DNA of 64,000 bases. Source: an uncultured Gammaproteobacteria bacterium. GTDB lineage: Bacteria; Patescibacteriota; Microgenomatia; Daviesbacterales; UBA10151. The position numbers were made by a program, and so were the translations under genes. Positions 1-25,169 of the stretch are shown piece by piece. A model generated the notes under the pieces. The model was not told the DNA's origin. It ran no database searches and was given only the letters and a program-made list of their open reading frames with translations. The DNA lies in the NCBI GenBank assembly GCA_964636275.1, contig CAZWRN010000001.1, positions 22,070 to 86,069 on the forward strand, in the 5' to 3' direction. The stretch's first letter is position 1; every line of letters begins with the position of its first letter.

Positions 1-13
1 TGTTGTTAATAAA

Positions 14-286
14 ATGAATGCTGGTGACCCAACAGGGGCTACTGGAGTCAATACCCTCTTAAGTACTGTAGTGAGTCTTTTTTTTGTATTTGCTGGGATA
101 GTATTTGTAATTATGGTGGTTTGGGGTGCGGTAGATTTTATTATCTCTTTTGGCGAAAAGGACGCAATTGGAAAAGCACGGCAAAAAATCACTTGGGCTA
201 TTATTGGAGTCATAATATTATCACTGGTCTTTGTTTTACTTCGGATTGTTGAGAGGCTGACAGGATTAACATTTATTATTAGCTAA
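14..286 (+). CDS. Small double-TM pilin-like protein, paralog 1 (VirB2/TrbC-like topology)
   Basis: 90 aa with two hydrophobic helices flanking the conserved loop WGAVDFIISFGEKDAIGKARQK; the motif is shared with five downstream paralogs; the N-terminus may be cut by the window edge. Confidence 0.45.
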   Translation: MNAGDPTGATGVNTLLSTVVSLFFVFAGIVFVIMVVWGAVDFIISFGEKDAIGKARQKITWAIIGVIILSLVFVLLRIVERLTGLTFIIS

Positions 287-287
287 T

Positions 288-743
288 ATGAAATTATTGA
301 TACTAATTGTTTTGACTCTGACCATTTTTGCCCAGCTGGCTTTGCCTGTCCATTCGGCCGCCCAGATTGGAATCAAACAACCTACTACTGGTGGAGGAAT
401 TCAGGTAGGAAAAAACGATGCTGACACTCTCTTATCCACAGTGATTCGAAATATAATCACCTTTGTTTTTACTTTTGCCAGTGTTGCTTTAGTACTCGTC
501 TTTATGTGGGGATCTGTTGACTGGATTATTTCTGGGGGTGACAAAGACAAAGTGAGTGCTGCTAGAAAAAAGATCACTGCAGCTATCACGGGCTTTATCA
601 TTTTGTCGCTTAGTTTCTTCTTTATAAGTGTGATTGGTGTGATGTTTGGGATAAATCCATTTCAAGGACTTAAAATCCCCTTTCTTGGGGAAGCTGCAAC
701 CATTGGTAATCCGCAACGTCCGACAGGGGGTAATGTCCAATGA
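288..743 (+). CDS. Small secreted double-TM pilin-like protein, paralog 2
   Basis: Signal peptide MKLLILIVLTLTIFAQLALPVHSAAQ; TM1, loop WGSVDWIISGGDKDKVSAARKK, TM2; starts 1 nt after the upstream gene. Confidence 0.5.
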   Translation: MKLLILIVLTLTIFAQLALPVHSAAQIGIKQPTTGGGIQVGKNDADTLLSTVIRNIITFVFTFASVALVLVFMWGSVDWIISGGDKDKVSAARKKITAAITGFIILSLSFFFISVIGVMFGINPFQGLKIPFLGEAATIGNPQRPTGGNVQ

Positions 744-1147
744 AACAAAAAAAGATTATTTTACCCTTTTTATTAGCTCTTCTTATATTTAATCCACTTT
801 CAGCCCAAGCTTTTGATATAACTGTTCCAAATACAATAACCCAACCTGTAACAAACTCTCAGGCAGCCAGCCAAGGAGTTGGCTCAATGATCAGCAACGT
901 AATCACATTAATTTTTTCTTTCTCCGGGGTGGCAGTAGTTTTGTATTTTTTATGGGGAGCCTTTGACTGGATTATGTCTGGAGGTGATAAAGAAAAAGTT
1001 GGAAATGCGAGGAAAAAGATGACTACTGCCATAATCGGTTTACTTTTACTCTCACTTACTTTCGCAATTATGGGTATCATCAGCCAACTCACATCAGTGA
1101 ATATATTGGGAGATCTGACACTTCCCCGATTTGGAGCAAACAACTAG
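740..1147 (+). CDS. Small secreted double-TM pilin-like protein, paralog 3
   Basis: Signal peptide ending AQA; loop WGAFDWIMSGGDKEKVGNARKK between two TM helices; overlaps the upstream stop by 4 nt. Confidence 0.5.
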   Translation: MKQKKIILPFLLALLIFNPLSAQAFDITVPNTITQPVTNSQAASQGVGSMISNVITLIFSFSGVAVVLYFLWGAFDWIMSGGDKEKVGNARKKMTTAIIGLLLLSLTFAIMGIISQLTSVNILGDLTLPRFGANN

Positions 1148-1595
1148 GATGATGAAAATAATAACCATTTTTTTAGCTCTGTCATTATTTATATTCCCGG
1201 TATCTGCCTGGGCGCAAACAAACTCTAAACAAAATAATGCAGGAAGCACCTTTAGAATAAACCAACCGACAGGTTATGGTGTCCAAATTGACGGGACAGC
1301 TGACAATATTATTGGCGTTTTGGTCAAAAATGCCATAATTCTGATTTTTTCTTTTTCAGCTTTAGGAGTTATTGCCTATTTTTTATGGGGAGCTTTTGAC
1401 TGGATTGTTTCTGGTGGAGATAAAGAAAAAATTAACTCAGCCAGAAAAAAAATGACTCATGCTTTGTTTGGTTTAGCTATTCTTTCATTGTCGTTTGTGA
1501 TTATTACTGTTGCTGGAGAGATTGTAGGTTTTAATCCGTTGAAAGAGCTATTATTCCCAGCACTTGGTGATCAATCCTCAACCGTGACTCCTTAA
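1131..1595 (+). CDS. Small secreted double-TM pilin-like protein, paralog 4
   Basis: Signal peptide; loop WGAFDWIVSGGDKEKINSARKK between two TM helices; the true start is possibly the MMKII Met a few codons in. Confidence 0.5.
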   Translation: MEQTTRMMKIITIFLALSLFIFPVSAWAQTNSKQNNAGSTFRINQPTGYGVQIDGTADNIIGVLVKNAIILIFSFSALGVIAYFLWGAFDWIVSGGDKEKINSARKKMTHALFGLAILSLSFVIITVAGEIVGFNPLKELLFPALGDQSSTVTP

Positions 1596-1654
1596 ACTAA
1601 GTAATATAACGCCATTTTTTTGCTTTCTAGAGTATCTTATAGTATAATATAGGC

Positions 1655-2719
1655 ATGTTTAATTCTAGTTTAAATTGCCTAAAAACCTCTCTAACCGGTC
1701 TAATTTTGTCCGGAGTTATATTTAGTGTTTTCGCTTATCCAATCCAGATATCGGCGGATAGTATTACATGGGAACCGGGATACGAAAGTACTTTTGAGAG
1801 TGGCTCAACCCCTACCCCAGCCAACCCCCAAGGTCAAAACTGGATATTTAATCCTATCCGCCAGGTTGGACAAAATACTCAGTTTGGAGGCTATGATCCA
1901 ATTCGAACTGTCGGCAACAACTCAACATTTAATACATATGAGCCGATCAGAACTGTTGGCAATAACTCCACTTTCAATACTTATGAACCGATTCGGACTG
2001 TAGGACAGACCACCACTTTTGGCAGTTACGAACCAATTCGTGCTGTGGGACAAAATACTCAATTTGGAACCTACGACCCTATTAGACGGGTTGGTCAGGC
2101 GACTCGATTTGGGTCCTATGATCCTATTAGACAAGTAGGTCAAAATACCTCATTTGGCGCTTACGATCCAATCCGCCAGGTTGGACAGAATACTCAGTTT
2201 GGAAATTATGATCCTATCCGCCAGGTTGGACAAAATACTCAGTTTGGAAATTATGATCCGATCAGAACTGTCGGACAATCAACCAGTTTTTCAAGCTATG
2301 ACCCCATCCGCCGTGTAGGTCAAAATACCTCATTTGGCGCTTACGATCCAATCCGCCAGGTTGGACAGAATACTCAGTTTGGAAATTATGATCCGATCAA
2401 AACTGTGGGACAAAATAACGCAGCGCCGGCTTACAACCCGATTGTGATACCAAATCTGGAAAACAATCCATATCGATACAATGCTATTCAGGTGCCAAAT
2501 ACTGGTAACTCGGGTGTGACGTACAATCAACCGGTGGTTCCAGCTGCTGGAAGCAATAACCCGGCTTACAACCAACCATTAATTCCACCTACTGGAAATA
2601 GTTCTACGACTTATAATCAGCCGGTCGTCCCCACAGCTTCGACACAGCCCCAGGTAATTGTGGTTGATCCTTCAACATATAGTAGTATTCGTGAACTACC
2701 TAAAACAGGCCTTCGCTAA
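1655..2719 (+). CDS. Secreted tandem-repeat protein (about 13 x 16-aa YDPIRxVGQNTxFGx units) with a C-terminal LPKTG
   Basis: N-terminal signal/TM segment; highly regular 48-nt repeats in the sequence; Pro/Asn-rich tail ending ELPKTGLR; embedded within the pilin paralog array. Confidence 0.6.
   Translation: MFNSSLNCLKTSLTGLILSGVIFSVFAYPIQISADSITWEPGYESTFESGSTPTPANPQGQNWIFNPIRQVGQNTQFGGYDPIRTVGNNSTFNTYEPIRTVGNNSTFNTYEPIRTVGQTTTFGSYEPIRAVGQNTQFGTYDPIRRVGQATRFGSYDPIRQVGQNTSFGAYDPIRQVGQNTQFGNYDPIRQVGQNTQFGNYDPIRTVGQSTSFSSYDPIRRVGQNTSFGAYDPIRQVGQNTQFGNYDPIKTVGQNNAAPAYNPIVIPNLENNPYRYNAIQVPNTGNSGVTYNQPVVPAAGSNNPAYNQPLIPPTGNSSTTYNQPVVPTASTQPQVIVVDPSTYSSIRELPKTGLR
1850..2445 (+). repeat. In-frame tandem 48-bp repeat array inside the CDS
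   Basis: Near-identical units, e.g. gatccaatccgccaggttggacagaatactcagtttggaaattatgat recurs at about 2164, 2212 and 2347; the larger block 2112-2215 is duplicated at 2300-2397. Confidence 0.85.
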
Positions 2720-2748
2720 TCTCGAGGTATTGACAAGGTTGTTTCTTC

Positions 2749-3165
2749 ATGATTATGATTAATTCAATCATGAAAAAGCTTTCTGCCGCTTTTGCTTCTG
2801 TCGCTGGATATTTCACATTAGCTTCTTCTGCTTTGGCACTTCAAGTAAACACACCAACTAATATGGGTATTGATCCAAAGACAGCTCCTAGTACTATTTT
2901 GACAAGCGCTTTAACTATCGTTTATATCGTTGCAGCACTGCTTGTTCTCTATTTTTTGATCATGGGAGCTTTTAAATGGATCACCTCTGGTGGTGACAAA
3001 GATGCTATCGGAAAAGCTCGCGGCGCTATCATAAATGCTTTGATTGGTCTGGCTATATTAGCTTTGGCTGTAGTGATAGTCATAGTTGTTGGAAAGATCT
3101 TGAATATTAATATTTTGGGCAACTTCACTATCCCCAACCTGATGGGTACTGCAACCGACATTTAA
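2749..3165 (+). CDS. Small secreted double-TM pilin-like protein, paralog 5
   Basis: Signal peptide; loop MGAFKWITSGGDKDAIGKARGA between two TM helices. Confidence 0.5.
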   Translation: MIMINSIMKKLSAAFASVAGYFTLASSALALQVNTPTNMGIDPKTAPSTILTSALTIVYIVAALLVLYFLIMGAFKWITSGGDKDAIGKARGAIINALIGLAILALAVVIVIVVGKILNINILGNFTIPNLMGTATDI

Positions 3166-3320
3166 TGTCGGTAAATTCTAAGCACTAAATCCTAAACTCG
3201 AGATAAATCTAATACATAAATTCTAAATACAAAACTATTTTTGAAATTGTTATTTTGATATTTGAATTTGTCTAGAATTTAGGATTTCGATATTAGAGTT
3301 TATTATGTTACTCTTATTAC

Positions 3321-3635
3321 ATGAGTCCTACTCCTTCGATAAACTTAGGTCCTGAACCGGCAGGAATTGCCCAACTTGAGCAGCTTTTCTCCCGCATAGT
3401 TTATTTATCTGCTGGGATAGCATTTATGGCACTCACAGTAATGTTGGTATATGCAGCAATCAGATTTCTTACCTCTGGTGGAGACAAGAAAACGATCCAA
3501 TCAACCTGGGCTGTTATCACTTGGGCATTTCTAGGAATTTTTTTCATGGGTCTAGCCTGGGCTATTCTTCTTTTAGTAAAAAGCTTTACCGGTGTGGATG
3601 TTCTAAATTTTAGACTTGCATTCCCCCAGACTTAA
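3321..3635 (+). CDS. Small double-TM pilin-like protein, paralog 6 (divergent, no obvious cleavable signal)
   Basis: Loop IRFLTSGGDKKTIQSTW between two hydrophobic helices; same family motif SGGDK. Confidence 0.45.
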   Translation: MSPTPSINLGPEPAGIAQLEQLFSRIVYLSAGIAFMALTVMLVYAAIRFLTSGGDKKTIQSTWAVITWAFLGIFFMGLAWAILLLVKSFTGVDVLNFRLAFPQT

Positions 3636-3672
3636 GTTGAAAAAGATAACTCAGTAAGTTACTCTATTCTTA

Positions 3673-5184
3673 ATGCCTTTTATATCCCGAAAATTCTTTT
3701 TCAATTTTAAATCTAAAGTATGCCTGATATTTACATTGGGTCTTTTTATTTTTGGTAGCTGTGCGACCCCAGCGCTAGCTCAAAATAGCCCCGCATCAAC
3801 TCAATCTACGCAACAAGTTTTAAATTCACTTTTAAACTCATTTGCCGGCTGTATGATTATCGGACAAAGCCTGATTGAAACAGAAGAGTGTCCTACCCAG
3901 TCAGGCTCTCAAAGCTCTAACCATCCAAATAGCGGGATGGGGCTGGTCGGTAAGGCTATTTCATTGACCTACAATCCTCCTCTTTCCACTCAGGCCTATC
4001 TGGCAGACGTTAAAGAGAGTTTGGGCTTTGCCAAACCGGCTTATGCCCAATCTGTGACAGGCACAGGTGAGAGTGTAATTGCTCCTGTTAAAAAACTCTG
4101 GCAGATAACACGAAATTTCTCTTATCTGATTTTTACCTTGATATTTGTAGGTATAGGCGTGATGATCATGCTGCGGCGAAAACTAAATCCGCAAACAGTA
4201 CTAAGTGTTCAAAGCGCTTTGCCAGGGCTGGTGATAGGGCTGATATTGATCACATTTAGCTATCTGATTGCCGCTTTGATAGTTGATTTGTCTTTCTTAC
4301 TAATTCCGCTTGTCGCAAGTGTTTTTGAGCAGGCTGGAGGGAATATTTTCAAGGAAAATGGTCAGACTTTGCAGGATTTCGCTCTAAATTCGACAGTCTT
4401 CTCTTTTTTTAAACCGGTTTTTTGGAATCATCCAAACTGGCCATTGGATCTTGATCTTTTGAAAGGAACCCCTCCGGGGTCTGTTACTAGAGAGCAGTTT
4501 TCAATCCCCAACTTAATCCCATATCTTATCCAATTGGCTATTGATGCTGTTCTGGGTCTGGGTAATTTATTGATAATGGTAATCGTTGTCATCGGATTGT
4601 TTTTTCAGATGATTCGTTTACTATGGATAATTTTGAGATCCTATATCTCTATTTTAGTTTTTACTGTTTTGGGACCATTATTGATTTTAATGTCCACAAT
4701 ACCAGGTCGTGGAAAATCAGTCGAATTTTGGTGGAGAAATCTACTAGGAAACGCTTTAATCTTTCCGGCTATATTTGCAGCCTTCTTTTTTGGGGGGATG
4801 ATCTTGTCGGATACTGGTGTGGATCAAAACGCTTTTAACCAGACATTGCCGCTATTTGCCGGTATACCTGTTTATCTGTTAAAATATGTTATAGGATTTG
4901 CCATTATATTGGGCGTTCCTGCGGTACCACAAATGGTTAAAGAAACAATCGGAGTCAAGGATATTAAAGGAATCCCAGAAGCCGCCATGGCTGGCTTTGG
5001 TGCGGGAGTTGGACCAATGCAACAGGGTTTAAAACAAGCCTACAAACCATTTGAAACAGAAAGACAAGCATTTAGAGAAGCAAAAATGCGTTCGATGTTC
5101 CCATCCGACAAAACAACTTTTGATACCATGATGGCAAGTAAATCTTCACGGCCTCGCTGGTACACTCGTTGGTTTAATAAATAG
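3673..5184 (+). CDS. Polytopic membrane protein, VirB6/TrbL-like candidate
   Basis: 503 aa; signal peptide, about 130-aa extracytoplasmic domain, then 5-6 TM helices and a charged C-terminal tail; positioned directly after the pilin array as in T4SS loci; no motif-level proof. Confidence 0.4.
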   Translation: MPFISRKFFFNFKSKVCLIFTLGLFIFGSCATPALAQNSPASTQSTQQVLNSLLNSFAGCMIIGQSLIETEECPTQSGSQSSNHPNSGMGLVGKAISLTYNPPLSTQAYLADVKESLGFAKPAYAQSVTGTGESVIAPVKKLWQITRNFSYLIFTLIFVGIGVMIMLRRKLNPQTVLSVQSALPGLVIGLILITFSYLIAALIVDLSFLLIPLVASVFEQAGGNIFKENGQTLQDFALNSTVFSFFKPVFWNHPNWPLDLDLLKGTPPGSVTREQFSIPNLIPYLIQLAIDAVLGLGNLLIMVIVVIGLFFQMIRLLWIILRSYISILVFTVLGPLLILMSTIPGRGKSVEFWWRNLLGNALIFPAIFAAFFFGGMILSDTGVDQNAFNQTLPLFAGIPVYLLKYVIGFAIILGVPAVPQMVKETIGVKDIKGIPEAAMAGFGAGVGPMQQGLKQAYKPFETERQAFREAKMRSMFPSDKTTFDTMMASKSSRPRWYTRWFNK

Positions 5185-5197
5185 AATACTGAGTGCT

Positions 5198-8119
5198 TCA
5201 ACCTTTTACAAATGCCTGCATTGTAGCCGCTAGCTGCTTTAAAACGCCTTCCAAAAATCCGCTAAAAAGACCTCTTTTATTGGTTTTCTCATACAGATCC
5301 CTCATAAATTGATATAAATCATTACCCAAATACTCCCTATTTAGTCGTTCGGACTCATGGTGAGCTACCATATGTGATAATGTCAATTTTCTGTTTAATA
5401 ATTCTAGTTGATTCCAATTTAGATTATTGAAATCATATTTCTCAGAATGCTTAGTCCGGAATTCAAAAATTCCTCTGGCGAGAGAACCTATAAATTCGTT
5501 CAACTCGTTTGCGCCATGGTGGTCATCAAACTCAGTTAAAGCTAATGAAGCTTTGAAAAACTCTCCCAAGGTTTTTATAATCTGGTCTGGTGTTTCCATA
5601 GCATGAAAATCATAGAGTAGTCTTGGCCCAGATTTATCAAACATGCCCTGGACTTTTTCCATGGCATTCCAGCGGCCGGTATTATATTTGATTCGATTGA
5701 AAAAACGGTCCCATTCTTCGGCCAGCTGAGCATTTGTTCCCAACTGGAAAAACTGCTGAATTGTAACTGTATTTACATAGCCATATTTTCTTAGCTCCTT
5801 AAAGCGACCTGGATTTAACTCACCGTCATTCCAATAATCAGCTGGCTTATGATGAAGCTTTTTCTTGTCTCGCGCTCCTCTTCCACCAATTGATGCATTA
5901 AAATCGATCAAATGGGCGTATCTCTCATAGATCATTCGCTGATGATCTGCCCAGGCTTTGGCTAATTCACCACTTCTTTCCCTGGCCAATTTCTGAGCAA
6001 TCTTTTTTCTTTTCTTCACTTCGGGTGTGTCATTTGGTGACTCGGGCATCATATCTTGAGCCAAATGGAGTGTGATTTTGTTTCCTGAAAACATTTTTTT
6101 GCTACCAGTTTCAGGGTCAATTTCTCTTGTGTCATCGTCATACCATTCAAAAACCGGATCAAAAACAACAGCATCTCCGGCGACGTTTTCATAGCCGAAT
6201 TGCTCAATTCCTCCTTTTAATTCTTCTGGTATTGCTACGCCTTTTTTCCACTTTAGACCATCAAAATCAGCTGACTGACCAGAAGCATGATGGATCTTTT
6301 CGGCAATCACAAAGGCTCGATTGAGATGTCCAAAGACCTGTTCAATATCCTCAAGGTGAATATTACTTAGTGTATCAGGATCTAAATTTTCAACTTCAGC
6401 GCTCTTGAGATTGCGCTCCAGTACGAATTTGGCCTTTTTTGCCTCATGCACTTTCTCTAATTCAGGCTTTATTTCCTCTCTTAGTGCTGGTGTTAATTCA
6501 TTTCTTAACTCGGCAATTCTCTCCTGCCGCTCTTCATCGGTGTAAGCCGGTTTCCCTTCCAGATTTCTGCGAGCATTTTCCTCGTTGATTTTACTTGCTG
6601 TTCTAGCTGGTAAAGCTTCTTCTACTTTTTCCTTTAGTTCAATGGGGAACTGATCTGCAATTTCCCTTGTATAGGCAAAATATTCTGAAATAGTTTTCGT
6701 TACTATTTTTTTACCTGAAGCATCCATTAATAATTTTGCTTTTTCAGGATTTCCTTCCTCTCCTTCTTGTTTTATTCTATTTATTGCACGATGAGCTGAA
6801 TGATACTTATCAAGTGCATCACTGGTAATCATATAATTCATTCCATGAATCATTAATCCTCTATATTTTGTTCTTGCAGCTTCTACTTTTTTCTTTGCTT
6901 CATTTATATCAATTGACTGGTAGTACTTTTTGAGAGCTTGATCATATTGATATTCCTGAAAAACACCTTCATCAGAGTAGAATTTAGTTTTATCGGGAAA
7001 GTCGGTCAATCCCGCAATCTTAAATACATCCGTCATCCCTAAGAAATCTTTTGGTTTTTTATCTTCTCCAACTCCAAAATCATCCCACATTTGATCGATC
7101 AGTTTGATTTTTTGTCTGAGTGTCCAGGTATCTTCTTTTTCTTTATTAGTTAAATTTGCTCCATCAACAATTTTATTTACCAGATTCTGATCTTTTATAC
7201 CTTCATCTTTGACCCGGTAATAATGGCCTCTGGCTCTTGATGGGGTATCTGCATCATCATTCCAACCTTCAAGTAAATCTGATGCCTGCTGGACACCGGC
7301 CTCTCTCATTAATGCTTTTAAATGTCGTCCACGGATATTGGTAATACCACTACCCCATTGTTCACATTTCAAATATTTTGCTGCAAACGCCACATTGTGA
7401 GTGATCTGCCGAGCCTCAATCCAGTTGGAGATCTCAGATCGAAAAGATTCATACTGGGGCTCAGCAAAGACCACGTTTATATATTGCAACATCTCACCAA
7501 CACCTGGAGCCTCACCAGCCTCATCAATGTCAAGAGTTGCTAAAATATTATTTACACGTTGTCTCAATTTACCAAATTGGCGATTTTGTTTATAGTATTC
7601 AAGCTCCTGATAAATATTGTAAAAAGATTGTTCTCTTCCCTCATTGGCCACTGACTCTCTATACGCATCTACTTCAGCTTGGGGAAACCCTTTTGCGGCA
7701 TTTTGATCACGATCCCATTGTTTTTTTTCCTCTTCTCCCCGCATCGGATCAGGCGGAGTTTCTGGAGTTACATTGTCCTCAGGTCGGTGATGTCCAGAGG
7801 TTTCTGCTGATTCATCTGTATCCTCTGCGCCCCCTGCTACTCTAAAAATAGGTTTGCCTGATCTGGTAAAAAGTGTTCCTGGTGGATAATCGGCTGGATT
7901 GGGTTTTTCAGTATTTTTAGGATTTTCTGCACTGCTACGTTTTTGCCCGGTTGCCCATCCTTCGGTTCCTGGCCAAATAGGACGGCCCTTTTCAGTAAAT
8001 TTTGTTCCTGGTGGATAAGGTGACTTTTTTTCAAAATCAGAAGGCTTACTCCCTGAAGGAGCACTTTCGGGTCCTGTTCCTGGTGGTGTACCATCGGCCA
8101 TATTTTTGTCAAAGGCCAT
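5198..8119 (-). CDS. Large (973 aa) hydrophilic acidic protein of unknown function
   Basis: Long uninterrupted ORF with no TM; N-terminal duplicated motif YPPGTKFTEKGRPIWPG / YPPGTLFTRSGKPIFRV; lysine/glutamate-rich; no recognisable catalytic motif. Confidence 0.6.
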   Translation of the reverse strand: MAFDKNMADGTPPGTGPESAPSGSKPSDFEKKSPYPPGTKFTEKGRPIWPGTEGWATGQKRSSAENPKNTEKPNPADYPPGTLFTRSGKPIFRVAGGAEDTDESAETSGHHRPEDNVTPETPPDPMRGEEEKKQWDRDQNAAKGFPQAEVDAYRESVANEGREQSFYNIYQELEYYKQNRQFGKLRQRVNNILATLDIDEAGEAPGVGEMLQYINVVFAEPQYESFRSEISNWIEARQITHNVAFAAKYLKCEQWGSGITNIRGRHLKALMREAGVQQASDLLEGWNDDADTPSRARGHYYRVKDEGIKDQNLVNKIVDGANLTNKEKEDTWTLRQKIKLIDQMWDDFGVGEDKKPKDFLGMTDVFKIAGLTDFPDKTKFYSDEGVFQEYQYDQALKKYYQSIDINEAKKKVEAARTKYRGLMIHGMNYMITSDALDKYHSAHRAINRIKQEGEEGNPEKAKLLMDASGKKIVTKTISEYFAYTREIADQFPIELKEKVEEALPARTASKINEENARRNLEGKPAYTDEERQERIAELRNELTPALREEIKPELEKVHEAKKAKFVLERNLKSAEVENLDPDTLSNIHLEDIEQVFGHLNRAFVIAEKIHHASGQSADFDGLKWKKGVAIPEELKGGIEQFGYENVAGDAVVFDPVFEWYDDDTREIDPETGSKKMFSGNKITLHLAQDMMPESPNDTPEVKKRKKIAQKLARERSGELAKAWADHQRMIYERYAHLIDFNASIGGRGARDKKKLHHKPADYWNDGELNPGRFKELRKYGYVNTVTIQQFFQLGTNAQLAEEWDRFFNRIKYNTGRWNAMEKVQGMFDKSGPRLLYDFHAMETPDQIIKTLGEFFKASLALTEFDDHHGANELNEFIGSLARGIFEFRTKHSEKYDFNNLNWNQLELLNRKLTLSHMVAHHESERLNREYLGNDLYQFMRDLYEKTNKRGLFSGFLEGVLKQLAATMQAFVKG

Positions 8120-8288
8120 AAAAGGCTACCCGTTTGTCAGTACTCTAGTACCTATCCATCTTTTTTATTAGTTTAACTAAAGAAGGAAACGACTAGTGAG
8201 AGTATTATATACCCTATAGCCTATTAAAGCAACTTTCTGACTCCATCGTAACGTGCTTATAAAAAATAGTCAAACTTCAAATACCTAA

Positions 8289-9704: not shown

Positions 9705-9742
9705 CTTTGACATTTGTTTTTGAATGTGACAACAATTGATTT

Positions 9743-10081
9743 ATGCATCAGACAATTCATCAATACAGAGAGCAGATCCTGCAAAAAACATATGACGTCA
9801 TGACCCAGGCTGTTGAAAATGGGACACTCCAAGAAGAAGACATCTCACCAATGGCAGATTTTATTTTAGAGAGAGTTGATAAACTCACCACATATGATCA
9901 GGTAATCGGTTTTTTTCATTTACTAGCTTTGAAATGGCCTATCTTCTCCTCTTTATCTGTCGAAACAGAGGGTAAGCTGCAGGAAAAAGTTGAATCTCAT
10001 GTAAGAGATAGTATGTTATCATTGATAAAGGAAGGAAAGGTTGACGAAGCTGTCCAAATAGGACAGGCTTTGCATAAATAA
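9743..10081 (+). CDS. Hypothetical small protein
   Basis: 112-aa ORF tightly linked (1-nt gap) to the downstream gene. Confidence 0.4.
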   Translation: MHQTIHQYREQILQKTYDVMTQAVENGTLQEEDISPMADFILERVDKLTTYDQVIGFFHLLALKWPIFSSLSVETEGKLQEKVESHVRDSMLSLIKEGKVDEAVQIGQALHK

Positions 10082-11920: not shown

Positions 11921-11922
11921 AT

Positions 11923-15997: not shown

Positions 15998-16086
15998 AGA
16001 ATAAACCAATAAACAAATAACCCAATGTCAAATTCCCAATTATTGAGAATTTGTTTATTTGAATATTGGATTATTTGTATATTTAT
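15998..16086. repeat. CCAAT-rich imperfect palindromic element (copy A), between the VirB4 N-terminal ORF and the VirB4 ATPase ORF
   Basis: aataaaCCAATaaacaaataaCCCAATgtcaaattCCCAATtattgagaatttgtttatttgaatATTGGattatttgtatattt; related copies at 24414-24470, 24581-24629 and 25086-25165. Confidence 0.7.
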
Positions 16087-16089
16087 AGT

Positions 16090-17880
16090 ATGAACTTACC
16101 TTTTAGCAGTAATAAAAAAAGTTATGCGTCAAATATTAAAGGGACTGCGGCTGAAGCACCGAAAGATCCTAGTGTGAATGGACAAACTTTTAGTTTAGAT
16201 GACGCCATTGCTCCCAAAGAGATCGAAATTGATTTTAGTTATCTACGAATGGATGACAAATACTACCGATCTTTTTTCGTCTCAGGTTATCCCCGCTATG
16301 TTGAACCAAACTGGCTTGAGCCGCTGATTAGTTTTGAACACTCACTAACTCTATCGATGTTTATTTATCCATCATCCAGTAAGAATATTTTGGATGATCT
16401 GAAAAGAAAGATCGCCGAGATGGAGGCTACTATTCAGACAGATATGGAGCGTGGCCGAGCAATAGATCCGGCTGTTCAGGTTGCTTTGGATGATGCTAAA
16501 TCACTCCAAGAACAGTTGGTTAAAGGGGCCGAAAGGTTTTTCCGGCTAGGACTTTATGTCACAGTCCCCTCTTCCAATCTTGAAGAGTTAAACAATATTT
16601 CCAAACTTGTTGAATCAACATTGGGATCTTTATCTATTCAACCTCGGGTGATGACCCTTCAGATGGCTGAAGCTTTTAACGCCACAATGCCGATCGATCG
16701 GGATATTTTAAAGCTCAATCACAACATGGACACAACATCCCTAGCGACAACTTTCCCGTTTACAACTTCAGAGCTGACTTCAGAAACGGGTATTATTTAT
16801 GGCATCAATGAACACAATGGCTCTTTGATTATTTTTGACCGTTTTTCATTGGAAAATGCTAATTCGGTGATTTTTGCTAAGTCCGGATCTGGTAAGTCCT
16901 ACTTTGTCAAACTCGAGGCTTTACGCTATATGATGTTTGGTTCGCAGGTGATTGTGATTGATCCTGAACATGAATATTTAAAGCTCTGTCAGGCTGTGGG
17001 AGGGCAATATATAGATTTTTCATCAGAGTCTCCGGTCAAGATAAATCCCTTTGATCTATCCAATGTCACAGAAGAGGGAGAAAATGAGCTGGGAAGAAAG
17101 ATTCTGACACTTACCGGATTTTTAAAACTCGTCTTGGGCCAGTTGGACGCTTCTCAGCAGGCAATTTTAGACCGGGCTTTGATTACAACGTATCGCCTCA
17201 AAGGAATAACCCAGGACCCAAAAACACAACATTTACCGCCACCATTAATGGAAGATCTCTATAAAGTACTGGTGGGTATGGAAGACAAAAGTGCCCAGGA
17301 GCTGGCTTATCGCCTAGAACGATTTATTAAAGGATCATTAGCTGGTATTTTTAGTGCTCCCTCTAATATTAACTTGAACAATCAGCTGATTGTTTTTTCG
17401 GTTCGTGATTTGGCAGATCAGTTGAGGCCTCTGGCGATGTATCTGATATTGGATTATATCTGGACCAAGATCAGACGAGAGATCTCCAAAAGATTGCTGA
17501 TCGTAGATGAGGCCTGGTACATGATGCAAAATGAGGATTCAGCTGAATTTTTGGTAGGTATAGCCAAAAGAGCCCGCAAATATTATTTAGGAGTTACTAC
17601 AATTACCCAGGATGTGGAAGACTTTTTAGGAACAGATCGTGGAAAGGCGATTATATCCAACTCTTCGATTCAGATATTACTTAAACAAGCTCCGGCCTCT
17701 ATTGGAAAAGTAGCTGAAACTTTTAATTTATCTGATGGGGAAAAATTGTTGTTGCTCTCAGCTGGAGTAGGACAAGGACTCTTCTTTGCCGGACAAACCC
17801 ATGTCGCGATGAGTGTAGTTGCTTCTCCAGAAGAACATCGACTGATCACCACCAATCCGTCTGAAGTGTTTAAGAAATAA
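16090..17880 (+). CDS. Type IV secretion ATPase, VirB4/TrbE/CagE family
   Basis: Walker A VIFAKSGSGKSYFVK, Walker B LLIVDEAWYMM, upstream GYPRYVEPNWLEPLI signature of the CagE_TrbE_VirB domain; start chosen at MNLPF (16090) because the track start lies inside the repeat element. Confidence 0.8.
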   Translation: MNLPFSSNKKSYASNIKGTAAEAPKDPSVNGQTFSLDDAIAPKEIEIDFSYLRMDDKYYRSFFVSGYPRYVEPNWLEPLISFEHSLTLSMFIYPSSSKNILDDLKRKIAEMEATIQTDMERGRAIDPAVQVALDDAKSLQEQLVKGAERFFRLGLYVTVPSSNLEELNNISKLVESTLGSLSIQPRVMTLQMAEAFNATMPIDRDILKLNHNMDTTSLATTFPFTTSELTSETGIIYGINEHNGSLIIFDRFSLENANSVIFAKSGSGKSYFVKLEALRYMMFGSQVIVIDPEHEYLKLCQAVGGQYIDFSSESPVKINPFDLSNVTEEGENELGRKILTLTGFLKLVLGQLDASQQAILDRALITTYRLKGITQDPKTQHLPPPLMEDLYKVLVGMEDKSAQELAYRLERFIKGSLAGIFSAPSNINLNNQLIVFSVRDLADQLRPLAMYLILDYIWTKIRREISKRLLIVDEAWYMMQNEDSAEFLVGIAKRARKYYLGVTTITQDVEDFLGTDRGKAIISNSSIQILLKQAPASIGKVAETFNLSDGEKLLLLSAGVGQGLFFAGQTHVAMSVVASPEEHRLITTNPSEVFKK

Positions 17881-17940: not shown

Positions 17941-18303
17941 TTAGTAACTTTTCCATTTATCTCTTAAATTTACAATCTTTCCTCCCACTAACTCATATCG
18001 CTTAATTAGTTCGCTACATTTCTCTTGATCTAGATACTTCAAATCTTTTGCTATATTTAAATGTACTTCCATCTCATTACAGGATCCCAATGCTCTATCT
18101 AGTGATACCTTGAATTCTTTCTCAAAGCGTCTTTTCGCCCATCCTTCAGCAATATTTGCAGGAGGAGACTTAGTACATCTTCTCATTTGAGAAGCCAGAT
18201 CATTCTTTTCAAAAGATGGAAGCAATACACACAACTTCATTACTTCGATAGCCAACTCATAACATTCTTTATATACATCTAAATCCTTGAAGCTCTGAAT
18301 CAT
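17941..18303 (-). CDS. Four-helix-bundle protein (23S rRNA intervening-sequence protein family)
   Basis: FKDLDVYKECYELAIEV...LPSFEKNDLASQMRRCTKSPPANIAEGWAKRRFEKEFKVSLDRALGSCNEMEVHLNIA matches the family pattern (DL.VW.kA..L......LP..E...L..Q.rRaa.Si..NIAEG..R...keF..fL.iA.GS..E....L). Confidence 0.65.
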   Translation of the reverse strand: MIQSFKDLDVYKECYELAIEVMKLCVLLPSFEKNDLASQMRRCTKSPPANIAEGWAKRRFEKEFKVSLDRALGSCNEMEVHLNIAKDLKYLDQEKCSELIKRYELVGGKIVNLRDKWKSY

Positions 18304-18421: not shown

Positions 18422-20374
18422 ATGGCTGCCCGCGATTCTGCTTCACTGTCTCGCAACGATTATTTGGCACTTTTCTATGCTTTGCAGGAGCTGCGCTCAG
18501 AGCCTAGCCAGCTCAGAATTTTAAAATCTCACATCTCGAGCGGCCGTTTTTACAATCAACCTTTGCCAAATATGATCCGACATATGCAAATACTTTTGCA
18601 GAGTAAGGATCCTAATCGGAAATTTCCGCAAACTCTCCGGAAAGAGGATGTGCCTGAATACTTTGAATCGCTTTTACGCGAGGTTAATAGCCATACTGAA
18701 CATGATTTTTATGGAAATATTGAACGTGGCATCAAGCAAAATATTTGGGAAAATATTCCGAGTCCGATAGCTGCACCAGTTCAAACTCCCCAGATGACAG
18801 ATGTCCCAGCAGCGACTGAATCACCCACGCCATCCGAGCCAGAAGAGGCCGTGCCAGAGCCGGAAAAAAAGTCTGAGCCGATAAAGCGTTTTAAGGCTGG
18901 CGGGACTCATTCTGAACCGATAAAAAAAGATGAGGGGCATAAAGATCAGCCACAGGCAAAAACTACCCCCAAAAAAAATATCTACCAGAGAGTAAAATCT
19001 TTTTTTACAACATCATCAACCCCTCAGCCTTCAACTTCGAGTGCTCCCTCAACAACGGCTACTAATAATACTCGGATTGTTGTGGCTAAAGCCAGACAAA
19101 CAGTTGGACAGGTACTCAGCAATCCGGTAAAAGATCTTGGCAGTCAGATCGTGAGACAGATCATCCGTCATCCTTTACTAAAAAAACGGGTAGTAACTGC
19201 TGGGATAGGGGCGATCGGCGGATATTATTTTGGCGGGGCACCGGGAGCAGGGGTTGGAGCTGTCCTGGGAGGGTTGTTAGGGCCAAATATCTCCACAACC
19301 ATAGGTGATGTTCTGACTGGAGGAAGAAGTAGCTCTTCCCTTTCGACGGGTACTCCAACAGCGCCAGATGATACATCAGGTGACGCACCTTCAGGTGGTG
19401 GGGGAGGGAGTAACTTTTTCCGCAACCGAGCTTTAAATACTGCGCGTAATTTAGCCAATCAGGCGGCTCGACGAGCCATCATTGCCGGTGGGCGAACTTT
19501 TTTAGCCGCCAACGCCTGGTGGATTATTTTGGTGATAGTTGTGGGGATTTTGCTACTGGTGGCGCTGTTGTTGATGCTCTGCATTCTCCCCTGGTCCGGC
19601 TGCAGTACCGGTGGATTAAATGGTGATGTAAAAAAGAATTTTTCTATTCAAAAATCAGCCCCTCAGGCTGTTGATAATGGATCTCCAATTGAATATAAAA
19701 TTGAAGTTATTAATAAAGGAAATCAAAATGCCTCAGTCACCGTTGTAGATAATCTCCCTGATGGAACTATTTATCAAACTGGAAATAACGATCCGGCTAC
19801 TGACCAAAATACTTCAAAAAAAATTCAATGGACAATTAATGACCTAGGTCCTGGACAGAAGAAAGATCTGACTTTCACCGTAGTTCCTCAAATCCCTGAT
19901 ACATGGATAGTTAATCAGACATCTGCAAATATTAAGTTGCTTGGAAATTCAAGTAGCGGTAATGTCAATATTCCGGGAAATATCCCCCCTACCGCAAACA
20001 ATTGCAATGGTACCTATCCTCTTAAAAATCCATTAGGTAACTTTGGTGATCCAAAGTGTGATTTTAATAAAGATGCCCTATACCAAATACTTCAGCAATT
20101 GGATCCTACAAACGCTACCTACTGGTTTACTAAAGTTGCTCGATGTGAAAGTAACTATTCTCCGAATGCCTATGCAGATCCAATTGCTGTAGGAACACCC
20201 GATCCTATAGGGGCCTGGGGGCTTTTCCAAATGGGACGGGGTAAGAATGGCGAATTTGACCATGGAGATGTTATCTGGCAACTTCAAACAAGTAATGCAG
20301 TGAATTATAACAACAATATTTCTAAGCTTGGGTTAGCCTGGCGATATTGGCAGTGCGCCAATGACAGATGGTAA
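18422..20374 (+). CDS. Membrane-anchored cell-wall hydrolase: N-terminal cytoplasmic region, Gly-zipper/TM, DUF11-like repeat domain, C-terminal Rpf/SLT-like transglycosylase (VirB1-like role)
   Basis: GIGAIGGYYFGGAPGAGVGAVLGGLLG then TM WWIILVIVVGILLLVALLLML; IEYKIEVINKGNQNASVTVVDNLPDG (DUF11-like); VARCESNYSPNAYADPIAVGTPDPIGAWGLFQM (the CES...GLFQ transglycosylase-like motif). Confidence 0.6.
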   Translation: MAARDSASLSRNDYLALFYALQELRSEPSQLRILKSHISSGRFYNQPLPNMIRHMQILLQSKDPNRKFPQTLRKEDVPEYFESLLREVNSHTEHDFYGNIERGIKQNIWENIPSPIAAPVQTPQMTDVPAATESPTPSEPEEAVPEPEKKSEPIKRFKAGGTHSEPIKKDEGHKDQPQAKTTPKKNIYQRVKSFFTTSSTPQPSTSSAPSTTATNNTRIVVAKARQTVGQVLSNPVKDLGSQIVRQIIRHPLLKKRVVTAGIGAIGGYYFGGAPGAGVGAVLGGLLGPNISTTIGDVLTGGRSSSSLSTGTPTAPDDTSGDAPSGGGGGSNFFRNRALNTARNLANQAARRAIIAGGRTFLAANAWWIILVIVVGILLLVALLLMLCILPWSGCSTGGLNGDVKKNFSIQKSAPQAVDNGSPIEYKIEVINKGNQNASVTVVDNLPDGTIYQTGNNDPATDQNTSKKIQWTINDLGPGQKKDLTFTVVPQIPDTWIVNQTSANIKLLGNSSSGNVNIPGNIPPTANNCNGTYPLKNPLGNFGDPKCDFNKDALYQILQQLDPTNATYWFTKVARCESNYSPNAYADPIAVGTPDPIGAWGLFQMGRGKNGEFDHGDVIWQLQTSNAVNYNNNISKLGLAWRYWQCANDRW

Positions 20375-20978
20375 AGTAAAAGTTATGAAAATTGAAAATA
20401 TTTTTGCAAATAAAAAAATAGCCTTAGTTATTGTTGTTTTGCTTGTTTTACTTTTAATAGCGTTTTTATTGCGACTTATATTCTCTTCCCCTAAATCATC
20501 CATCCCACCAGTTATTGATGTCCCAAAAGCTTCATTTTCTCCATCGCCAAGAATAGTCGGCCAGCCTTTTCCATCTGTAATTTCATCTACCCCATCAGCT
20601 CAAATCAAATCACTTGTATATAAACCGGGGGAGTTGACTAAAGATTATGAACGAATCAGTTCTCACCCACCCCTTTCTTCAGCAGATCAAACAGTTAAAA
20701 CGAACCTCTTAAGGCCCTTGAATTCCCAGTCGGGGGTTGTAGCAAGTACCAATCAATTTAGAATCGAGTACGTCAAAAGTCCTGATTTGTTTATGATTGA
20801 AGTAAGAAGCATCAACCCCAATATTGGAAAAAATGCCGCTGAACAATATTTAAAGGATCAGGGACTTAGTACTTCAGGGGTTTGTAATCTGCCGGTACTA
20901 TTTTATCTCAGTCAGCAAGTTCAAGATGATTTAATTTCAAAAGGACAGACTTTCAATCCAATACCGACAGGATGTTAA
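20361..20978 (+). CDS. Membrane-anchored extracytoplasmic protein (possible VirB8-like scaffold)
   Basis: N-terminal TM IALVIVVLLVLLLIAFLLRLIF followed by about 170 aa extracellular; role inferred only from context. Confidence 0.35.
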   Translation: MTDGKVKVMKIENIFANKKIALVIVVLLVLLLIAFLLRLIFSSPKSSIPPVIDVPKASFSPSPRIVGQPFPSVISSTPSAQIKSLVYKPGELTKDYERISSHPPLSSADQTVKTNLLRPLNSQSGVVASTNQFRIEYVKSPDLFMIEVRSINPNIGKNAAEQYLKDQGLSTSGVCNLPVLFYLSQQVQDDLISKGQTFNPIPTGC

Positions 20979-20979
20979 A

Positions 20980-22305
20980 ATGCAAAAAAATATAAAAATA
21001 ATATTATTTATACTTAGTGTTTTCTTTGTCAGCCAACTCCGACCGGTTCAAGCTCAGGAACCAGTAGATTTTCCCACAATCATACCCAAAGTGTCCTGTC
21101 CGGTGATCGGTGGTTCTATACTAACCCCTTCATTTCAAGCTGATCCAGTCAAAGGGCATTGTGGAAGTGATTATGGATATTCCTGCACTTGCGGAAATTC
21201 AGGTCGTAGAGCTAAAGCTATAGATATTCCCACCACTCCAGATACAGATGTTGTTCTGCCAAAAATCGAGGGTGAAGACATTACATGGACACTAATTGAA
21301 ACTCTTTGTGCCGGATCAGGTTTATATCCCAACTGCAGTGATAGTAATGGCGGAACAGGCGGGATGATAACATTTGTAGGTATTAATCCCTCTAGACCTA
21401 ACGACAAATGGTATATTCAGTTTCTTCATCTCAAAGTATCAACAATTTTGGTAGAAAAAGGAGGTTCGTATTCACCAGGAACTGTAGTTGGAAAAACCGA
21501 TATATCAGCCCATGTCCACACTACTATAGGTAAAAACCTGAACGTAAGTGGTGACAATATTTCAGGTGCTGCAGACTGTGATGCCAATTGGCTACCTTCT
21601 GACTTTATTTGTGACCCCTCCAAACAACCAACAACTATCCCTGAAGCCAAACCGGTTGGGGCTGCAGCTGGTGAAATAAAAAGTAATTATGCATGTACCA
21701 AAGTTGGAACTCCCAAAGAAGATATGCCTGCGATCTGCAAAAACCAGGCACTTCCTCAATTTGGAGAAGCAGGCAATTTTACCTATTACTGCCAGGGGGA
21801 TGACCGTTGGCAAAAATTTGCCTGTAGCGTTGGAAAGGTTGGCTGTGGTGCTACATCAGCCGCCATGATTACTACCTATTTTGGACAAACTCTTACTCCG
21901 GCTGATGTGTTTGGTGATTTTTTAAATTCTGGCGCATTAACATGTGGAGACGGGATCTATCCAGACAGAGTGTTAAACTGGTTTAGGAATAATGGCTATG
22001 AAGTGGGGCCGAGCGTAGTCGCTGGAGGCACTCTAGATGCTGTCGCTGCTAAAAATTATATTGACAAGGGATATCTGATCTTGGGATCCTCGCATAATTT
22101 TAGAGGACAGAGTGGCGCGACATTTAGCCATGTGTTTGTTGTTCAAAATGTGGACCCACAGACCGATACTTTTATCATGCGTGATCCGGAAAATTGCGCT
22201 TATGGGCCGGGAACAGAGCTGGCTCAAAATAATGTTCAACCGATCAAAAGCGATAAGATTCCAAGCTGGGCATATGCCTATCCGATTAAAAAAGGAGGTA
22301 ATTAG
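20980..22305 (+). CDS. Secreted cysteine-rich two-domain hydrolase: degenerate M23/LytM-like N-domain plus C39-like (Peptidase_C39_2) papain-fold C-domain
   Basis: Signal peptide; YIQFLHLKVS...GTVVGKTDISAHVHTTIG resembles the M23 HxH region; CSVGKVGCGATSAAMITTYFG (Cys nucleophile) and SHNFRGQSGATFSHVFVV (His) fit the C39-like domain. Confidence 0.5.
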   Translation: MQKNIKIILFILSVFFVSQLRPVQAQEPVDFPTIIPKVSCPVIGGSILTPSFQADPVKGHCGSDYGYSCTCGNSGRRAKAIDIPTTPDTDVVLPKIEGEDITWTLIETLCAGSGLYPNCSDSNGGTGGMITFVGINPSRPNDKWYIQFLHLKVSTILVEKGGSYSPGTVVGKTDISAHVHTTIGKNLNVSGDNISGAADCDANWLPSDFICDPSKQPTTIPEAKPVGAAAGEIKSNYACTKVGTPKEDMPAICKNQALPQFGEAGNFTYYCQGDDRWQKFACSVGKVGCGATSAAMITTYFGQTLTPADVFGDFLNSGALTCGDGIYPDRVLNWFRNNGYEVGPSVVAGGTLDAVAAKNYIDKGYLILGSSHNFRGQSGATFSHVFVVQNVDPQTDTFIMRDPENCAYGPGTELAQNNVQPIKSDKIPSWAYAYPIKKGGN

Positions 22306-22310
22306 TAACT

Positions 22311-22754
22311 ATGAATAGATTTCAAATGTTTCTCATGATATTTATAATTATCTTAGCCTTTATCGTTTTTATTAGCTTTATCTTTTTCTCTAATGCTCCA
22401 TTCCCTTCTGAGCCTACACCAATCCCTTCAGCGTCAACAACACCAGTCCAAAGAGTTATTGATGATAAAAGTGTGGAGCTTCATCCAAATAACGGTGTCT
22501 ATCAGACAATCTCCTCGGCAGCAGCGGAACAGATTGACCAGGATACTAAAATTGGCCAGTTAATAAAAAAATTACCACATCGATCGGAGAATTTTTCGCT
22601 TGTATATGATATAGACACTAATTCTTTTATTGCTGAACTTTCTCCCACCAGAAGAGCTCAGGCAAATAGAGAACTAGATCAATTTTTGGAAGAAAACGGT
22701 ATAATGGATAGAGATTGGTTATATAATTTAAGCATTAAACAACAAACCTACTAA
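22311..22754 (+). CDS. Small membrane-anchored hypothetical protein
   Basis: N-terminal TM FLMIFIIILAFIVFISFIFF then a hydrophilic domain. Confidence 0.4.
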   Translation: MNRFQMFLMIFIIILAFIVFISFIFFSNAPFPSEPTPIPSASTTPVQRVIDDKSVELHPNNGVYQTISSAAAEQIDQDTKIGQLIKKLPHRSENFSLVYDIDTNSFIAELSPTRRAQANRELDQFLEENGIMDRDWLYNLSIKQQTY

Positions 22755-22758
22755 GTTT

Positions 22759-23205
22759 ATGAGTACTAAAGCTAAAATCATTGCAGTTATCGTCGCTATC
22801 GGAGCAATCTTGATTGCCGTATTTCAGTTTGGTCTGGGTGGGCCAGCGACTGAAAGAGGATCGGAGGTCTCCCAAACTGATTCTCCAGTCGTCGTATCTA
22901 CCAATCCTCCAACAATGAAAGAGAAGAAAACCGTAGTTGTGCTCCCAACTCAGCCAATTGAGATCACTTTCAATCAACCATTAGAAAATGTACCAGAAAC
23001 ACGAATTACCATTGAACCAAAAGCTGATTACAAAGTTGAATTGTCAGGAGATAAAAAAACTATCAAAATAATCCCTGTAACCCCCTATTCTTTGGGGCAA
23101 GGTTACTCGCTTTTTATCAAAGCTGATACCAAATTTGACGGTAAAAAGACTTTAGGTTCAGATGTGGATTTTCATTTTGCAACCATTAGTTATAACGGAG
23201 TTTAA
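22759..23205 (+). CDS. Small membrane-anchored protein with an Ig-like beta domain
   Basis: N-terminal TM IIAVIVAIGAILIAVF; beta-rich C-terminus (ITIEPKADYKVELSGDKKTIKIIPV). Confidence 0.4.
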   Translation: MSTKAKIIAVIVAIGAILIAVFQFGLGGPATERGSEVSQTDSPVVVSTNPPTMKEKKTVVVLPTQPIEITFNQPLENVPETRITIEPKADYKVELSGDKKTIKIIPVTPYSLGQGYSLFIKADTKFDGKKTLGSDVDFHFATISYNGV

Positions 23206-25165: not shown

Positions 25166-25169
25166 GCTA

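Follow-up and report, generated by a model that had tools for sequence, protein, structure and literature searches.

A probable Patescibacteria-type chromosomal type IV secretion system beside the replication origin of a Candidatus Daviesbacteria genome

The closest described counterparts of the locus analyzed here are the type IV secretion systems (T4SS) of Patescibacteria. Wang et al. 2023 (Cell; PMC10633639) described an essential T4SS in Southlakia epibionticum ML1 (SEML1_0006-0019), which includes pilin genes and has neither a coupling protein nor a relaxase. The survey of the phylum by Quinonero-Coronel et al. 2025 (Microb Genom; PMC12102498) defined a monophyletic VirB4 clade related to the MPF-FATA type, in which TrsD is the commonest partner, PrgI/VirB3 and VirB6 are also found, relaxases are rare, and VirB2 genes form arrays of 2-11 members that are abundant in Microgenomatia. 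In Microgenomatia and Paceibacteria, these genes lie near dnaA/dnaN. VirB6 was scarce in Microgenomatia in that survey, 22.6% of the VirB3 homologs there were linked to virB4, and the authors proposed that the system imports host macromolecules. A 2025 FEMS review (PMC12857230) and a 2024 perspective (PMC11665869) restate the system and stress that its function is still unsettled, and a 2026 preprint (bioRxiv 10.64898/2026.06.21.733656) reports possible T4SS tubes at the parasite-host interface of a cultivated relative. Here, we analyze a 64-kb stretch of contig CAZWRN010000001.1 (the window, used throughout for the whole stretch), of which positions 1-23205, hereafter the T4SS block, very probably encode a Patescibacteria-type chromosomal T4SS derived from monoderm MPF-FATA conjugation machinery, in the genome of a Candidatus Daviesbacteria.

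The locus closely resembles the T4SS of S. epibionticum and those of the survey. It combines VirB4, TrsD, PrgI/VirB3, VirB6 and a divergent array of VirB2-like pilins with peptidase-type and candidate lysozyme-type genes 3' of virB4, in a cluster without a relaxase or a type IV coupling protein (T4CP), and it is chromosomal, beside dnaA/dnaN. It differs from the S. epibionticum system in its class, which is Microgenomatia/Daviesbacteria, and from the survey's picture of Microgenomatia in that PrgI is adjacent in most of the loci that we compared (counts below) and that a VirB6-like fold is present in a family that Pfam does not annotate. Two further traits set it apart from the known Patescibacteria T4SS, namely a PrgI that is longer by ~300 aa and ends in a β-sandwich, and an 8.8-kb slot of orphan genes that splits the locus. 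The kind of system is already published and the locus is a typical instance of it; what we add (a VirB6 found by its fold where hidden Markov models [HMMs] miss it, coordinates for a split VirB4, and the hypervariable slot) is incremental. An earlier note on this DNA, made from the letters alone, had proposed a chromosomal T4SS or host-contact machine, rather than an integrated conjugative element, in an organism with traits like those of the CPR (Candidate Phyla Radiation). The tests of single components, the synteny and the match to the published Patescibacteria T4SS all agree with that proposal. The word "island" that it used is misleading, the core being vertically conserved and the variability confined to the middle ~8 kb.

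Our inventory is based on a listing of open reading frames (ORFs) and on HMM scans with Pfam, NCBIfam, PADLOC and PHROGs, the Pfam cutoff being the gathering score (GA), and its coordinates are collected in Table 1. The VirB4 ORF passes a T4SS ATPase model (NF045971), a kind of test that the earlier note had proposed. It also matches P-loop_TraG (PF19044, 115 bits), AAA_10 and DUF87, the solved VirB4 domain of Thermoanaerobacter (PDB 4ag5, E 1.8e-48) and TrwK of R388; it has >8000 homologs, and its Walker A (AKSGSGKS) and Walker B (LLIVDE) motifs are visible in the sequence. The ATPase with Walker motifs that the note had recognized is thereby confirmed by NF045971 and 4ag5, and the CagE_TrbE signature that it had also claimed is not, since the Pfam CagE_TrbE model gives no match, which is immaterial to the assignment. 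The true start of this ORF is probably the ATG at ~16090. The TrsD-like ORF just upstream, which the note had overlooked, aligns with positions 2-181 of the VirB4 model conju_CD1110, and the VirB4 ORF covers positions 183-734 of the 752 in this same CD1110 model (NF045971). The two ranges are complementary, and VirB4 is therefore encoded here by two ORFs, a TrsD-like one for the N-terminal part and one for the ATPase, an arrangement known from pGO1.

Two membrane components accompany this motor, and for both the family named in the earlier note holds. The PrgI/VirB3-like protein, identified by an N-terminal domain with a transmembrane (TM) hairpin, has 407 aa versus the usual ~100. The extra residues form a linker rich in P/S/A/Q, a coiled-coil segment and, at the C terminus, a β-sandwich like CarboxypepD_reg (PF13620, 26.6 bits, below GA), and this extension is kept in the Daviesbacteria relatives, with which alignments run to residue 400. 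The VirB6-like polytopic protein belongs to a family without Pfam annotation, and a sequence-profile search of the PDB returned zero matches. Fold comparison alone worked: by two methods, the best matches of its AlphaFold model are VirB6/TrwI and DotA, at a sequence identity to TrwI of ~11-13%. Within residues 103-205 (window 3979-4290), its first two TM helices resemble the hairpin of VirB2/TrbC pilins, a resemblance also seen in a Pfam TrbC score of 18 bits and in a PF04956 match in one VirB6-like homolog.

With these components, the locus can be set against the better-known classes of T4SS. As in Gram-positive MPF-FATA conjugation systems, its VirB4 passes the CD1110 model, a separate TrsD-like ORF lies upstream as in pGO1, PrgI and candidate two-domain cell-wall hydrolases are present, and outer-membrane core proteins are absent. 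Unlike these systems, it is chromosomally fixed, shows no relaxase, T4CP or oriT context, and has VirB2-type pilins, which Gram-positive conjugative systems lack. With the VirB/Trw (R388) and Dot/Icm systems of diderms, it has in common the TrwI/VirB6- and DotA-like model, pilins related to VirB2/TrbC and a VirB4 homologous to TrwK; in contrast to them, the VirB7/9/10 core, VirB5, VirB11 and VirD4 were not found here.

The comparison of synteny that the earlier note had suggested was made by tblastn on 80 loci from GTDB species representatives across Microgenomates, and it found the block in the same surroundings in most of them. VirB4 was detected in all 80/80 loci, TrsD in 75/80 and PrgI in 74/80; TrsD adjoins virB4 in 75/80, and a PrgI-like domain lies directly 5' of trsD-virB4 in 74/80. 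DnaN and DnaA are encoded no more than 10 kb downstream in 63/80 and 64/80, respectively, and the orientation is as in the window in all 12 loci that were mapped in detail. The gene order in Daviesbacteria runs from the pilin array through the virB6-like gene, a variable segment, prgI, trsD, virB4, the genes for hydrolases and anchored proteins, and Big_5 to dnaN, the resolvase-like gene and dnaA. Compared with the closest contig (L086; L numbers denote compared loci), identity is highest for VirB4 (98%), followed by DnaN (90%), DnaA (89%), Big_5 (81%), TrsD (77%), PrgI (74%) and the C39_2 protein (69%), and falls to 54% for the 650-aa protein (C-terminal part only), 49% for the 147-aa protein and 41% for the 205-aa protein. 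With respect to L081, L083 and L085, VirB4 is 84% identical, DnaA 58% and DnaN 52-54%. Moreover, the prgI-virB4 DNA is 79% identical to that of L004 and the VirB4 protein 99%, so synonymous sites have heavily diverged and VirB4 must be under extreme purifying selection. Judged by these comparisons, the VirB4 motor is under stronger constraint than DnaA/DnaN, and the locus is a vertically inherited chromosomal fixture, not a horizontal-transfer island.

The same comparisons speak to the identity of the organism. Named VirB4 homologs at 70-98% identity come from Candidatus Daviesbacteria (Microgenomates group, Patescibacteria), and the named close homologs overall (56-99% identity) are from CPR/Microgenomates or from metagenome-assembled genomes (MAGs) probably mislabeled as Gammaproteobacteria. 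Many contigs with a Microgenomates-type locus (L002, L004, L005, L011 and others) were deposited as "uncultured Gammaproteobacteria/Pseudomonadales" MAGs. The Gammaproteobacteria/Pseudomonadales labels of the deposited records are probably a taxonomic mislabel.

Table 1. Coordinates of the T4SS block and of the adjoining origin region (window positions; GA, Pfam gathering score; TM, transmembrane)
Feature	Length (aa)	Position	Strand	Characteristics
VirB2-like pilin paralog 0		14-286 (frame open from 2)	+	PF18895 34.4 bits > GA 26.6
VirB2-like pilin paralog 1		288-743	+	PF18895 30.7 bits; signal peptide + 2 TM
VirB2-like pilin paralog 2		740-1147	+	PF18895 29.0 bits
VirB2-like pilin paralog 3		1131-1595	+	PF18895 17.4 bits, below GA; loop motif present
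Secreted tandem-repeat protein	354	1655-2719	+	Inside array, between pilins 3 and 4; N-terminal hydrophobic segment
VirB2-like pilin paralog 4		2749-3165	+	PF18895 30.5 bits
VirB2-like pilin paralog 5		3321-3635	+	PF18895 31.9 bits
VirB6-like polytopic protein	503	3673-5184	+	Signal peptide + 6 TM; N-terminal VirB2-like hairpin
Acidic hydrophilic orphan	973	5198-8119	-	First slot gene, convergent with virB6; no signal peptide, no TM
Basic coiled-coil protein	471	8289-9704	+	Only coiled-coil noise matches
112-aa protein	112	9743-10081	+	No family match; no homolog in compared loci
Hydrophilic protein	612	10082-11920	+	C-terminal glycine-zipper/TM tail, TM-like 561-596
Protein with C-terminal 4-Cys tail	482	11923-13371	-	Divergent from prgI
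Extended PrgI/VirB3-like protein	407	13970-15193	+	PF12666 40 bits > GA 27; domain 9-98 with TM hairpin
TrsD-like protein	267	15194-15997	+	NF041427 E 1.3e-9, profile positions 16-200/201, below curated cutoff
VirB4 ATPase, MPF-FATA type	604	16066-17880	+	NF045971 (CD1110 family) 391 bits > cutoff 325
23S_rRNA_IVP / Avd-like four-helix-bundle gene		17941-18303	-	Inserted between virB4 and next T4SS gene; unrelated to machine
Bitopic protein	650	18422-20374	+	365-aa cytoplasmic region, TM 368-386, DUF11 36.9 bits, Cys-rich SLT-like C terminus
N-terminally anchored small extracellular protein	205	20361-20978	+	Paralog of 22311-22754 (jackhmmer, alignment)
Secreted two-domain hydrolase candidate	441	20980-22305	+	M23-like N terminus (likely) + Peptidase_C39_2
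N-terminally anchored small extracellular protein	147	22311-22754	+	Paralog of 20361-20978
N-terminally anchored Big_5 (Ig-like) protein	148	22759-23205	+	PF13205 28.3 bits > GA 23.6; last gene before dnaN
dnaN, Holliday-resolvase-like gene, dnaA		23297-26759	-	3' of T4SS block
Membrane-anchored endonuclease		24634-25113	-	PF10107, related to archaeal Holliday-junction resolvases; between dnaN and dnaA/oriC
DnaA-box cluster (oriC)		25197-25377		7 boxes in 180 bp, each with no more than 1 mismatch, directly after dnaA stop codon; context, not machine part

The block opens with the six double-TM paralogs that had been singled out as pilin-like. Five of the six exceed the GA of the T4SS_pilin family PF18895, and the sixth (paralog 3) carries the loop motif that the alignment reveals as common to the pilins, WGAxDWIxSGGDKxxIxxARxKI, as well as a 78-nt DNA repeat in common with paralogs 1 and 2. 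The pilins are 29-38% identical to the first paralog, and paralog 5 has an 83% identical counterpart in L087. Since the frame of paralog 0 has no upstream stop and is open to the window edge, the array may extend upstream, and the N terminus of this paralog may itself lie outside the window.

Nested within the array is the repeat protein of the earlier note, in which a unit of 45 nt / 15 aa (YDPIRQVGQNTQFGN) is present in no fewer than 10 copies. It has no homologs in 88 loci, and scans with PADLOC, PHROGs and NCBIfam brought up coiled-coil noise at most. It is a candidate pilus-associated adhesin. Its C terminus, ...ELPKTGLR-stop (2695-2719), is LPXTG-like. We rejected anchoring by a sortase, because only two residues follow LPKTG before the stop and a hydrophobic tail is absent in every frame; there is also no sortase gene in the window. 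In Woesebacteria-like loci, a family of proteins with a Sec signal (800-1180 aa), unrelated to the repeat protein, occupies the same position between the pilin array and virB6 (L040:685-4218, L079:1701-4988, L061:1300-3735, L052:1027-3417 and relatives), and a secreted non-pilin partner within the pilin array thus seems to be a recurring theme.

The most variable part of the locus is the slot between virB6 and prgI. It measures 8.8 kb, and scans of the Pfam, NCBIfam, PADLOC and PHROGs libraries found nothing for its five proteins (within 5198-13371) except coiled-coil noise; four of them are the large hydrophilic proteins that had been reported to lack a family, which they do. The 973-aa orphan has 2 entries in 5.8e9 proteins, one being the window's own and the other a 66% identical relative in the same context, and the mosaic conservation between the two indicates a real gene. 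Structure prediction with Foldseek, which the earlier note had advised for such proteins, recovered the VirB6-like fold described above and failed for this orphan, whose AlphaFold2 model, built on a 2-sequence alignment, is unusable (pLDDT 38.8, pTM 0.26). Every Daviesbacteria-like locus has a positional analogue of it, 770-1640 aa long and mostly on the minus strand. These analogues have no signal peptide or TM segment, are acidic (pI 5.1-6.2), and most have a P/G/E-rich N terminus (MA[DE]...P.G), and save for a few small groups they cannot be aligned with one another by BLAST or hhalign. A homology of the 973-aa orphan to the analogues of L008 and L009 was considered and rejected, as hhalign finds only a 20-residue N-terminal likeness (probability 0.9%).

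The 471-, 112- and 612-aa ORFs that follow are lineage-specific. The 471-aa protein alone has a homolog, a single one that is 59% identical (in L087), and the 612-aa protein has neither a family match nor a homolog in the compared loci. A J-domain that seemed to be present in the C terminus of the 471-aa protein ("FEVLGI...KYHTD") was discarded, as it has no Pfam match. The last slot protein, of 482 aa, comes from a small family (21 clusters among 1.84e9 representatives), and it is 87% identical to its homolog in L004 and 30% to those in L008/L010. Its positional equivalents in L086, L003 and L006 were missed by BLAST and jackhmmer, and are recovered by hhalign (probability 91%, E 1e-6); since they also have the four-cysteine C-terminal tail in common with it, we consider the 482-aa protein a conserved, fast-diverging component.

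The diversity on this side of prgI is considerable. When ORFs of at least 300 aa upstream of prgI were collected across loci, setting aside those with a match to the T4SS-block proteins of the window and leaving in the 482-aa family, 141 ORFs fell into 78 clusters, of which 56 were singletons. Moreover, five Gottesmanbacteria-like loci (L039:5561-7735 on the minus strand, L022, L037, L030 and L064) hold a VirD4-type coupling protein of 724-784 aa in the virB6-prgI slot, with TrwB_AAD_bind, TraG-D_C and T4SS-DNA_transf above cutoff, so some Microgenomates T4SS loci carry a T4CP in cis. The survey (PMC12102498) does not discuss a hypervariable slot. We infer that the slot proteins are lineage-specific accessory parts or substrates. 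A bolder idea, which we regard as unlikely, would make the slot a hypervariable cassette dedicated to this T4SS, whose giant acidic proteins and Cys4-tailed protein would be substrates or host-range determinants that differ from strain to strain and are delivered to the host, in an arms race set against a frozen motor.

Downstream of virB4, the earlier note had seen a VirB1-like membrane-anchored transglycosylase and a secreted M23-like/C39-like hydrolase, and each claim stands in part. The 650-aa protein does have one TM segment, and its C-terminal domain matches SLT (PF01464) weakly (E 0.013-0.042; 13.9 bits, below the GA of 21.3). This match spans a C-E-S...G-L-F-Q-M segment, its E57 is invariant in 5 homologs, and the C-terminal 130 aa are conserved, with invariant Cys residues, in L001, L003, L054 and L086. 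For the SLT-like domain, a PDB profile search was empty and tblastn versus plasmids gave one irrelevant match. The protein is a plausible VirB1-like candidate. In the 441-aa protein, the C39_2 domain is clear (PF13529, 33.8 bits, above the GA of 24) and the M23 part is at marginal E-values. Pfam gave no match for the N-terminal domain, and 8 of its top 9 PDB profile matches are M23/LytM-fold proteins (E 0.0055-0.2). Ten homologs all keep H36, D58, H126, H154 and H156, and the HxH motif is present; the first H and D are 22 residues apart and do not form HxxxD. On this evidence, the N-terminal domain is likely to be M23-like.

The other surface proteins of this part, that is, the 205-aa and 147-aa paralogs and the Big_5 protein, each have an N-terminal TM segment and are candidates for a VirB8-like subunit, and the position of the last is conserved in Daviesbacteria loci. 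For the two paralogs, the PDB profile search detected no relative of solved structure. Its sole match, to DotF (E 0.004), runs over the TM segment and a linker rich in proline; we dropped it because of its low complexity, and with it the VirB8/DotF identity that it suggested for the paralogs. The 23S_rRNA_IVP gene that interrupts this part, on the minus strand, had also been overlooked in the earlier note, and homologs of it occur at differing positions in the T4SS loci of L083, L013, L002, L062 and L057. A diversity-generating retroelement, which the Avd-like nature of this gene brought to mind, was rejected, as the window has neither a reverse transcriptase nor a TR/VR repeat pair.

The position of the block next to oriC, another claim of the earlier note, is well defined in the window. 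Both dnaN and dnaA and the DnaA boxes all lie 2-3.5 kb or less from the cluster, and rnpA, yidC and jag follow dnaA on the plus strand. DnaA boxes in the whole window outnumber those in any of 100 shuffles, and cumulative GC skew has its minimum, or turn, at ~22-24 kb. Together, the box cluster and the skew turn place the end of the T4SS block ~2 kb from oriC. There is no relaxase, T4CP or integrase among the proteins of the 64-kb window, and no tRNA, in line with what the note had observed for the island, and a repeat analysis of the window found no repeats flanking the T4SS block. The remainder of the window consists of housekeeping genes, and the GC content of the block is slightly above that of the rest.

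Several side observations concern this neighborhood. The T4SS genes lie to the left of the origin (~25.2-25.4 kb), and most of them, being on the plus strand, are read in the direction of oriC and so meet the leftward replication fork head-on; virB4(+) and dnaN(-) are oriented likewise in the 12 related loci mapped in detail. A 45-nt AT-rich motif (ATTATTGAGAATTTGTTTATTTGAATATTGGATTATTTGTATATT) and its variants occur at 16039-16083, 24574-24618 and 25127-25171, that is, just 5' of virB4, 5' of dnaN and where the DnaA-box cluster borders on its surroundings, and may act as a common regulatory or promoter element that ties T4SS expression to the origin region. The PF10107 endonuclease is 64-88% identical across Daviesbacteria loci, a conservation that exceeds that of DnaA.

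How such a machine would work can be sketched from established T4SS biology. VirB4/TrsD, docked on PrgI, would energize the building of a VirB2 pilus or tube via the VirB6 platform, and the hydrolases would open the peptidoglycan of the cell itself or that of its host. The resulting appendage would then contact a host bacterium and move macromolecules across, with effectors going out or host nucleic acid or protein coming in. Since no relaxase or coupling protein goes with the system, it may replace conjugation. Several points weigh against our assignment of the region to a Patescibacteria-type T4SS. The SLT and M23 assignments are sub-threshold, the VirB6 assignment depends on structure prediction, with Foldseek E-values that are modest (0.02-0.1), and a VirB8-like component was not identified in the locus. 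The window is 64 kb only, so a coupling protein or relaxase could sit elsewhere in the genome, and a T4CP occupies the equivalent slot in five related loci. Finally, experiments on any Microgenomates T4SS are absent from the literature (PMC11665869).

Among the more specific explanations, import fares best. In this scenario, which was put forward in PMC12102498 and PMC11665869, a machine akin to Helicobacter pylori ComB or archaeal Ced would take in host DNA or RNA, or other macromolecules, and thereby supply nucleotides. It would accord with the lack of a relaxase and a T4CP in the window, ComB and Ced being likewise VirB4-centered machines without either, and with a cultivated relative that takes host RNA as its food and displays T4SS-like tubes (bioRxiv 10.64898/2026.06.21.733656). 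The weak match of VirB4 to the CedB model (49 bits versus a cutoff of 700) has been counted in its favor, but it amounts to generic VirB4 similarity, components specific to ComB or Ced were not found, and the sequence gives no sign of direction. We hold import to be a serious possibility that falls somewhat short of an even chance.

Export is less probable, and we consider it doubtful that the machine injects the giant acidic slot proteins into a host bacterium as effectors. Their lack of a Sec signal and of TM segments, their acidity and common P/G/E-rich N terminus, their turnover or divergence past recognition beside a fixed core, and their location inside a T4SS operon, which is typical of effector genes, would all suit such cargo. 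On the other hand, scans of the family libraries detected in them neither a toxin or enzyme nor a T4SS signal domain of a known kind, AlphaFold2 gave no usable fold, the 482-aa family keeps its position in the locus and may belong to the machine as a cytoplasmic part, and the T4CP, which is the usual substrate receptor, is not in the window. An organelle for adhesion only, that is, a VirB2 pilus that attaches to the host and transfers no substrate, is more improbable still. The six divergent pilins, the secreted repeat protein and the Ig-like and DUF11 surface domains would fit it, and pilin diversity has been taken as host-range adaptation (PMC12102498). However, type IV pili already give adhesion in Saccharibacteria (PMC11665869), and both the extreme conservation of VirB4 and the VirB6 channel subunit encoded here also fit translocation. 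The weakest explanation, an integrated conjugative element or the decaying remnant of a once-mobile DNA-transfer island, can draw on the homology of VirB4, TrsD and PrgI to MPF-FATA conjugation proteins and on the variable middle of the locus, but it is largely refuted and very improbable, given that no relaxase, T4CP, integrase, tRNA or flanking repeat was found in the window, that the block is in the same place beside dnaN/dnaA in 63-64/80 genomes spanning Microgenomates, that VirB4 is better conserved than DnaA, the opposite of decay, and that block GC is barely above that of the rest of the window.

In the only species in which this was examined, epibiotic growth depends on the Patescibacteria T4SS, and the present locus leaves that picture unchanged. 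HMM surveys under-call VirB6 and VirB3 in Microgenomatia, and fold-based or lineage-specific profiles recover them. The conservation of VirB4 above that of DnaA/DnaN underlines how central the machine is, and substrates or specificity factors would most obviously be sought in the virB6-prgI slot.

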